Assembly (NCBI RefSeq): GCF_003334785.1
Contig: NZ_QOWV01000007.1
DNA from: Escherichia coli
Lineage (GTDB): Bacteria > Pseudomonadota > Gammaproteobacteria > Enterobacterales > Enterobacteriaceae
DNA length: 64,000 nucleotides
Reading direction: 5' to 3' (one strand)
Shown here: positions 48,293 to 48,512 of the stretch, piece after piece
Numbering within the stretch: the first letter of the stretch is position 1
Layout: every line of letters begins with the position of its first letter
Notes under the pieces: model-generated
The model's database searches: none
The model's input: the letters and a program-made list of their open reading frames with translations, nothing else
Told to the model about the DNA's origin: nothing
Translations under genes and position numbers: made by a program

Positions 48293-48304
48293 CATTTGTC
48301 TGAT

Positions 48305-48512
48305 GCCGCACGTAGGCCTGATAAGACGCGGACAGCGTCGCATCAGGCATCTTGTGCAAATGTCGGATGCGGCGTGAACGCCTTATCCGACCTACAAAAA
48401 CAAATTTATCAATGAGTTAGAAATCCCTTTAGGCCTGATAAGACGCGCCAGCGTCGCATCAGGCATCGTGTGCGAATGTCGGATGCGGCGAAAACGCCTT
48501 ATCTGACCTACA
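48305..48512. repeat. REP/BIME cluster: two tandem copies of an approximately 100-bp unit, each with two inverted REP sequences
   Basis: gtaggcctgataagacgcg...cgcatcaggcatc followed by gtcggatgcggcg...cgccttatc.gacctaca, seen twice; the last REP overlaps the mutT stop codon. Confidence 0.85.

Follow-up and report, generated by a model that had tools for sequence, protein, structure and literature searches.

All positions given below are those of the window, a stretch of 64,000 nt of Escherichia coli DNA read on one strand. Its segment 48050-48750 was identical to the reverse complement of the corresponding region of the E. coli K-12 MG1655 chromosome (NC_000913.3), and the MG1655 genome position is obtained as 159,941 minus the window position. 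The locus under study lies between yacG and mutT (Table 1). The former is the final gene of the rightward unit coaE-zapD-yacG and ends with a TGA codon at 48290-48292. The latter is read from the opposite strand, its TAG stop codon appearing as CTA at 48508-48510 of the plus strand. These convergent genes are separated by a gap of 215 nt, inside which four REP palindromes were found. A consensus scan of this cluster detected neither a promoter nor an intrinsic terminator, and the MG1655 RefSeq record examined contains no repeat_region features.

Table 1. Features of the yacG-mutT and gcd-cueO REP clusters and of the genes flanking the former (window positions)
Feature	Position	Strand	Basis and details
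yacG (DNA gyrase inhibitor)	48095..48292	+	Open reading frame list; RefSeq annotation of the identical K-12 sequence
REP half remnant (5' half), GTCTGATGCCGCAC	48296..48311	+	Inverted repeats I8/I9; directly after the yacG stop codon
REP Z2a, minus-strand consensus orientation GCCTGATGCG...GGCCTAC	48312..48349	-	Profile E=4.6e-10; fold -21.8/-21.3 kcal/mol; stem 48316-48348 (inverted repeat I2); tail 48312-48315, GTAG on the plus strand
naRNA4-like unit a (Y hairpin, linker, Z2 hairpin, mutT sense)	48315..48392	-	RF02564, 78.4 bits, model 1-77/77
Head-to-head linker, unit a, ATCTTGTGCAAAT, 13 nt unpaired	48349..48361		Rfam alignment
REP Ya	48362..48396	+	Profile E=6.8e-12; fold -18.4/-17.4 kcal/mol; stem 48362-48391 (inverted repeat I6); GTAG/CTAC tail 48392-48395
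Inter-unit tail-to-tail linker, 33 nt	48396..48428		Sequence; L-linker-like in length and position
IHF consensus, perfect, TATCAATGAGTTA (consensus WATCAANNNNTTR)	48407..48419	+	Pattern match
REP Z2b	48429..48465	-	Profile E=3.1e-10; fold -21.9/-21.4 kcal/mol; stem 48433-48464 (inverted repeat I4)
naRNA4-like unit b	48432..48508	-	RF02564, 77.8 bits, model 1-77/77
Head-to-head linker, unit b, ATCGTGTGCGAAT	48465..48477		Rfam alignment
REP Yb, tail with mutT stop codon	48478..48512	+	Profile E=3.5e-11; Rfam match starts at 48508; stem 48478-48507 (inverted repeat I1); GTAG/CTAC tail 48508-48511
mutT (8-oxo-dGTP diphosphatase, 129 aa in K-12)	48508..48897	-	Open reading frame list; annotation
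gcd-cueO pair, BIME-1-type	21143..21243		Sequence, profile matches, IHF pattern
gcd-cueO Y REP	21143-21181	+	Profile match
gcd-cueO L linker, 30 nt, IHF consensus AATCAATGGATTG	IHF consensus at 21191-21203		IHF pattern
gcd-cueO Z1 REP	21212-21243	-	Profile match; tail to tail with Y

Architecture and classification of the REP cluster

Each of the four palindromes was recovered as an inverted repeat by a repeat search. Their stems, 30 to 33 nt long and interrupted by internal bulges, fit the description of REPs as imperfect palindromes of 30-40 nt with internal mismatches. Pattern and profile matches also agreed with the REP consensus (y/z1/z2) and with genome-wide repetition. The strict REP pattern had one exact match, Z2a, against 0.00 expected in the window, a small REP profile yielded E-values between 7e-12 and 5e-10 for the four elements, and in the median E. 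coli genome the 701-nt query hit 17 places. Within the 64-kb window, the profile search retrieved six full REPs only, the four described here and two between gcd and cueO. The GTAG/CTAC tail at the foot of the stem is present in Z2a, Ya and Yb and degenerate in Z2b, where GTAG is replaced by TTAG. Directly downstream of yacG, the half remnant at 48296-48311 gave a weak profile match (48297-48322, E=1.7); the same stretch reads GTCTGATGCGACGCTG in strain 1579 and is there a clean Z2 half.

Folded individually, the REPs had free energies between -11.7 and -21.9 kcal/mol; relative to shuffled sequences, their z-scores ranged from -3.6 to -6.1. Among the eight strand-specific folds, that of the Yb stem on the mutT mRNA strand was the least stable (-11.7 kcal/mol); it contains an A.C mismatch because the corresponding pair is G.U on the other strand. 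When the cluster was folded as a whole, local hairpins dominated on the plus strand. A minus-strand fold in which the two Z2 copies pair together was discarded, since we regard it as a thermodynamic artefact that arises when palindromes are repeated; local REP hairpins would form first during transcription.

The palindromes are arranged in two Z2/Y pairs of 84 and 83 nt. As the preliminary description had proposed, the cluster is a duplicated, BIME-like one, and each unit combines two oppositely oriented REPs, a Z2 on the minus strand and a Y on the plus strand, which stand head to head with 13 unpaired bases between them. An alignment of the two units, 85 columns long, showed 90.6% identity and a single indel of 1 nt, located in the Z2 loop. 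The tandem duplication stands, while the period of about 100 bp first assigned to it has to be revised, the start-to-start spacing being 116 and 117 nt. This duplication was established by repeat search, which detected direct repeats of 64 nt (D1, 92% identity) and 18 nt (D2, 100%), and by pairwise alignment. Tandem Repeats Finder reported no repeat in the cluster, because just about 1.7 periods are present.

Both units matched the Rfam family RF02564 (naRNA4, gathering score 59.5 bits) over its full length and in the mutT sense, the first base of unit b coinciding with the final one of the mutT stop codon. Given this orientation, read-through from mutT would produce both units, and it is conceivable that they are transcribed and processed into small RNAs resembling naRNA4, which would condense the nucleoid together with HU as in the model originally published (PMC4550694). 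We consider this very improbable. The HU and nucleoid role is now contradicted by the follow-up work of its own originators (10.64898/2026.03.23.713779), and RF02564, which was modelled on one REP325 unit, amounts to a description of Y/Z2 BIME units in general.

Between the units, Ya and Z2b are placed tail to tail across a linker of 33 nt that carries a perfect IHF consensus and had been missed in the preliminary description. The window contained six matches to this consensus for 2.3 expected, and two of the six fall exactly within the tail-to-tail linkers of both REP clusters. Identification of the 33-nt linker as a true BIME-1 L motif was nevertheless abandoned: its overall similarity to the gcd-cueO L linker was at chance level (318/2000 shuffles), and the IHF core was all that the two had in common. 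It is for this reason named 'L-like' here, and not L.

The second cluster of the window, a smaller pair of REPs already noticed at first inspection, consists of a Y REP, an L linker and a Z1 REP, and its sequence makes it a regular BIME-1. Its flanking genes, which we take to be gcd and cueO, were named from the coordinate map to MG1655 together with the map positions of these two genes.

In the published classification, BIME-1 elements are single pairs of y and z1 joined by a long linker L, often with an IHF site, and BIME-2 elements are tandem copies of y and z2 with a short linker S, flanked by the motifs s, l or r. Atypical BIMEs are chimeras of both types and likewise occur in several copies, and the number of copies found at any one locus differs between strains (PMC3333891, Ton-Hoang et al.). 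The yacG-mutT cluster has in common with BIME-2 the alternating orientation of y and z2, the short head-to-head linker, which in unit a corresponds in length and position to the S linker, and tandem copies in a strain-variable number (two in K-12, one in W and O157:H7, three in BY68). It departs from BIME-2 in its tail-to-tail linker, which is 33 nt long and carries an IHF consensus in place of the short motifs s, l or r. From BIME-1 it departs in that the partner of Ya is a Z2 and in that there are four REPs in total, instead of a single y and z1 pair. Failing one feature of each type, it was placed in the atypical class, from which no difference was found: y, z2, the short head-to-head linker, the long IHF-type linker and a copy number of one to three all agree. 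Judged from its sequence, the cluster fits an atypical BIME in which two BIME-2-type units are joined by a BIME-1-like IHF linker. Two observations count against the BIME-1-like character of this linker, namely its resemblance to the gcd-cueO linker at the IHF core only and the lack of an exact consensus in divergent Escherichia.

Comparison with individual systems led to a similar picture. REP325, the BIME-2 located between yjdM and yjdN and the source of naRNA1-6, shares with the present cluster the unit made of a Y hairpin, a short head-to-head linker (11 nt between profile matches in REP325) and a Z2 hairpin, as well as a location in a 3' UTR, and REP325 has been described as a terminator and stabiliser (10.64898/2026.03.23.713779). 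However, REP325 comprises six units with a period of 100 nt, against two units and 116/117 nt at yacG-mutT. Its tail-to-tail spacing is about half as long as the 33 nt found here and is devoid of an IHF site. The genes on either side of REP325 are in tandem, whereas those flanking the yacG-mutT cluster converge, and this cluster directly adjoins a stop codon. The segment formed by Ya, the linker and Z2b resembles BIME-1/RIB/RIP elements in being a tail-to-tail pair with a linker of about 30 nt and a perfect IHF consensus. It differs from them by having Z2 and not Z1 as partner, by belonging to a cluster that is not a single pair and by a linker unlike L beyond the IHF core. The yacG-mutT cluster is an ordinary, already known kind of repeat, and its properties have all been published for the class.

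Unit number across strains and genera

The distribution of the cluster was analysed in 5,426 complete E. coli genomes. The K-12-type inter-unit linker was present in 1,867 of them and the diverged two-unit form, typified by strain 1579, in 264; two or three units were thus carried by about 39% of the genomes. The remaining 61% or so had neither linker, and in an evenly spaced sample most of these linker-less genomes displayed a span of 579-585 nt, against 701, which corresponds to one unit. One-unit alleles were found in E. coli W, O157:H7 and others. E. coli BY68 carries three units in a gap of 331 nt (extracted locus L005:390-720). Three units and a gap of 331 nt also occur in SCPM-O-B-8794 (L078:4077-4407), a strain labelled E. 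coli that has a homologous linker lacking the exact IHF consensus. Its MutT is only 90% identical to that of K-12, and it therefore probably represents a separate Escherichia lineage. A comparison of copy number across strains had been suggested as a check in the preliminary description, and its outcome is that the cluster is not invariant, the 116-bp direct repeats letting the unit number vary between one, two and three. From these sequences we infer, short of proof, that the multi-unit state may be old and that one-unit alleles would be deletions between direct repeats.

In E. coli FORC_041, the Z2a tail is interrupted by IS621, an element of the IS110 family with a bridge-RNA recombinase (extracted locus L009:1262-2570). 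The junctions, ...ACAGTAT-CT-AC and ATCAGGC-CT-TG..., place the insertion exactly at the target, with its CT core. This target site corresponds to window positions 48312-48322 on the minus strand, where Z2a of K-12 carries the exact 11-mer ATCAGGCCTAC, a published natural target of IS621 (PMC11208160). Its counterpart in Z2b, ATCAGGCCTAA, has one mismatch. In a separate case, the laboratory strain E. coli DTU-1, the mutT coding region itself was split by an insertion of IS1A (L131:559-1677), and this strain is presumably a mutT mutator. REPs are usually regarded as chromosomal; 55 of the 98,540 REP-containing query matches were located on plasmids (e.g. H40, NZ_CP041417.1 93097-93132).

The convergent arrangement of yacG and mutT is kept across Enterobacterales, Aeromonas and Vibrionaceae among the loci listed, and within the same set the gap in other genera usually measured 0-100 nt and held at most one hairpin. 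These loci include no Salmonella, and that of E. albertii is incomplete at its yacG end, so that the closest outgroups are missing from this comparison. Citrobacter has two to four REPs, its mutT stop codon lying about 9 nt beyond the CTAC tail. The extra unit is clearly dispensable, given that one, two and three units are all frequent in E. coli and that a gap of 0-60 nt with one hairpin suffices in most other genera.

Such a distribution can be the consequence of an essentially neutral repeat, spread by RAYT/TnpA-REP activity, gene conversion or unequal recombination and tolerated in the convergent gap, where it persists and has incidental effects only on the neighbouring genes. This explanation, which we hold to be unlikely, though worth serious attention, would account for the high frequency of each of the three unit numbers, copy-number variation being a general property of these BIMEs (PMC3333891). 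The dispensability of units lends it good support. The partial decay of the REP stems, with inner-stem pairs broken in 1579 and SCPM-O-B-8794, the half-REP remnant behind yacG, the toleration of IS621 in FORC_041 and the short hairpin or absent gap of other genera point in the same direction. The observations that speak against it come from the mutT end of the cluster and from published work on other loci, and are considered in the following section.

Strain variation also bears on a possible role at the DNA level, in which the Y REPs would recruit gyrase and the linker would recruit IHF, turning the cluster into a relief point for the positive supercoils generated by convergent transcription. 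The composition of the cluster from BIME-2-type Y/Z2 units would suit such a role, as gyrase cleaves preferentially at BIME-2 elements in vivo, and most of all at their Y REPs (PMC6379681), and so would the putative IHF site in the linker and the convergence of yacG and mutT. However, only 'a subset' of BIME-2 elements is cleaved (PMC6379681), and neither mutT nor yacG appears in the accessible portion of the supplementary text of the gyrase-mapping paper. Moreover, the IHF consensus is lost in the divergent Escherichia lineage and one-unit alleles are devoid of the linker altogether. A role of this kind appears improbable as the main explanation. A locus-specific IHF ChIP-seq report was looked for in the literature and none was found.

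It may be mentioned that yacG, itself a gyrase inhibitor gene, directly precedes these BIME-2-type Y/Z2 units, a repeat class reported to be preferred by gyrase. This adjacency is probably a coincidence, because the REP cluster is absent beside yacG in most other genera.

The mutT stop codon and its proximal REP

The last REP had been described as running across the mutT stop codon. This holds for the REP taken with its conventional tail, which overlaps the stop, and does not hold for the stem, which merely abuts it: position 48507, the base next to the stop, is the last in the paired part of Yb, and the CTAC tail at 48508-48511 contains the stop. The mutT mRNA reads ...CUG UAG GUCAGAUAAGGCG..., in which the G of CUG together with UAG forms the conserved GTAG of Yb. 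The stems of the K-12 cluster are located outside genes, yet the tail of Yb includes the mutT stop codon, and in O157:H7-type alleles three mutT codons and the stop are inside the REP stem.

In K-12, W and BY68, MutT ends in ...KRL* and the TAG codon is in the REP tail. In O157:H7, 1579, CUVM53 and FDAARGOS_1296, the protein has 132 aa instead of 129 (window 48499-48513); its C-terminus is ...KRVYVG* or ...KRVYVR* in the three alleles translated (O157:H7, 1579 and CUVM53). In these longer alleles, the last three codons lie in the stem and the TAA stop codon is provided by the conserved GATAAG of that stem. Counting of junction-specific 40-mers in the 5,426 genomes assigned 1,823 to the K-12 type, 1,378 to the W type and 711 to the O157 type, with 1,514 other variants. 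Thus, in at least 13% of the genomes, MutT has 132 aa and its final three codons, together with the stop, fall inside a REP stem. This run-on of the mutT frame into the stem in many strains had not been reported in the preliminary description.

Pairing in the mutT-proximal REP was compared between seven alleles. Across them, 94% of cells were paired and two outer-stem pairs displayed compensatory changes, figures that come from a small sample with a modest control (20/500 shuffles). The inner stem was broken in two of the seven alleles, those of 1579 and SCPM-O-B-8794. Outside Escherichia, Enterobacter cloacae, E. asburiae and a Pseudocitrobacter MAG differ from E. coli in both REP type and MutT C-terminus, and the TAG stop codon of mutT is again found in a GGCCTAC tail (L029:3440-3470, L095:9133-9165 and L067:5744-5775, respectively). 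The occupation of the mutT-stop position by a REP is therefore recurrent. As judged from these sequences, this recurrence may reflect either repeated capture of the stop by REPs or an insertion preference.

These data are less easily reconciled with a repeat that is merely tolerated. A REP directly at the mutT stop was retained in all E. coli alleles examined and recurs with other REP types in Enterobacter and Pseudocitrobacter, and the outer stem shows compensatory changes. At other loci, published deletions of REPs alter expression (10.64898/2026.03.23.713779).

A position so close to a stop codon can also have consequences for translation. As summarised in a later paper, ribosome stalling is reported to reduce translation where a REP lies fewer than 16 nt away from a stop codon (Liang 2015, cited in PMC12306157). 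This '<16 nt' rule had not been considered in the preliminary description. The Yb stem begins 0 nt after UAG, well inside the range of fewer than 16 nt on the 3' side of the stop, and in this respect resembles the REPs studied by Liang, Rudd and Deutscher in 2015, e.g. that of nrdAB. It differs from them in that the stop codon is inside the stem itself in at least about 13% of strains. At the other end of the cluster, the first hairpin begins 23 nt from the yacG stop codon, and should therefore have no effect on translation.

A further-reaching possibility is that the REP, by supplying the stop codon and, in many strains, the last three residues of MutT, may set lineage-specific MutT levels and, through them, rates of A:T-to-C:G mutation. 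The variation on which this could act would comprise TAG in the tail or TAA in the stem, 129 or 132 aa, hairpin strengths of about -12 to -18 kcal/mol and one to three units. The recurrence of a stop within GTAG in Enterobacter and Pseudocitrobacter would then stem from selection or from a preference of REP insertion. We regard this proposal as a long shot.

A proposed role at the 3' ends of both mRNAs

The explanation that we prefer, with moderate confidence, is that the cluster, an atypical BIME, may act as a bidirectional definer and protector of mRNA 3' ends, with a predicted damping of translation termination on mutT. An intrinsic bidirectional terminator had been considered as the mechanism and was rejected, as none was found by the consensus scan of the cluster. 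In the lack of such a terminator, the coaE-zapD-yacG transcript from the left and the secA-mutT transcript from the right are both expected to run into the cluster. Its stable hairpins would block 3'-to-5' exonucleases and aid Rho-assisted attenuation; in this way, they could set and shield the 3' end of either mRNA and keep transcripts from running on into the gene opposite to a certain extent. With the Yb hairpin starting 0 nt after the stop codon, the mutT-proximal hairpin would be inside the footprint of the terminating ribosome, for which the '<16 nt' rule predicts slower termination and a lower MutT output. Binding of IHF to the linker DNA and of gyrase to the Y REPs is possible and would be secondary. 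The number of units would drift through recombination between the 116-bp repeats.

Such a role would be in line with reports on other loci. REPs have been described as elements combining terminator and stabiliser, and about 60% of those of E. coli lie between convergent genes. Their hairpins stop 3' exonucleases and can give rise to a partly Rho-dependent attenuation, REP325 doing both, and convergent gene pairs with a REP are more highly expressed (10.64898/2026.03.23.713779). REPs and other stem-loops also set the 3' ends of Rho-dependent transcripts (PMC6061677). The effect on mRNA stability or termination suggested in the preliminary description corresponds to what the literature generally ascribes to REPs in convergent gaps. 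The same work recorded a large variance from locus to locus and no general difference in half-life for REP-adjacent genes (10.64898/2026.03.23.713779). At the present locus, it counts against the preferred explanation that the mutT-proximal hairpin is precisely the one that is weakest on the mutT mRNA strand, and that the extra unit is dispensable.

A literature search on mutT combined with repetitive extragenic palindromic sequences returned nothing relevant. The accessible portions of the supplements to the 2026 REP preprint, Ton-Hoang 2012, the gyrase Topo-seq study, RepRanger and Dar and Sorek held no REP-related information on mutT or yacG.

The locus is of modest interest in that a mobile repeat physically makes up the coding end of an antimutator gene, an end which is polymorphic within the species. 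If the effect of a REP within 15 nt of the stop applies here, the natural junction alleles would represent a ready-made series for the study of REP control of translation, and if such control holds at mutT, the same alleles would probe its feed-through into the mutation rate. In other respects its weight is minor, as the element is a REP/BIME of the textbook kind and no bacterial genome is better annotated than this one.

Three Rfam matches to small RNA families were observed elsewhere in the window. A match to STnc40, a Salmonella sRNA, on the minus strand at 48912-48981 (84 bits) covers the 3' end of secA and the secA-mutT spacer, that is, the mutT 5' leader. PssrA, described as 'plasmid-encoded Shigella sRNA A', gave a full-length match on the minus strand at 54628-54717 (105.5 bits) in what is K-12 chromosome. 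From the coordinate map and the K-12 gene map, we take this position to be approximately the ftsA/ftsZ junction. A chromosomal match is odd for a family described as plasmid-encoded. The third match, to the tp2 sRNA, lies on the plus strand at 36927-37040 (103.4 bits), a position which, by the same maps, is presumably the pdhR-aceE spacer.
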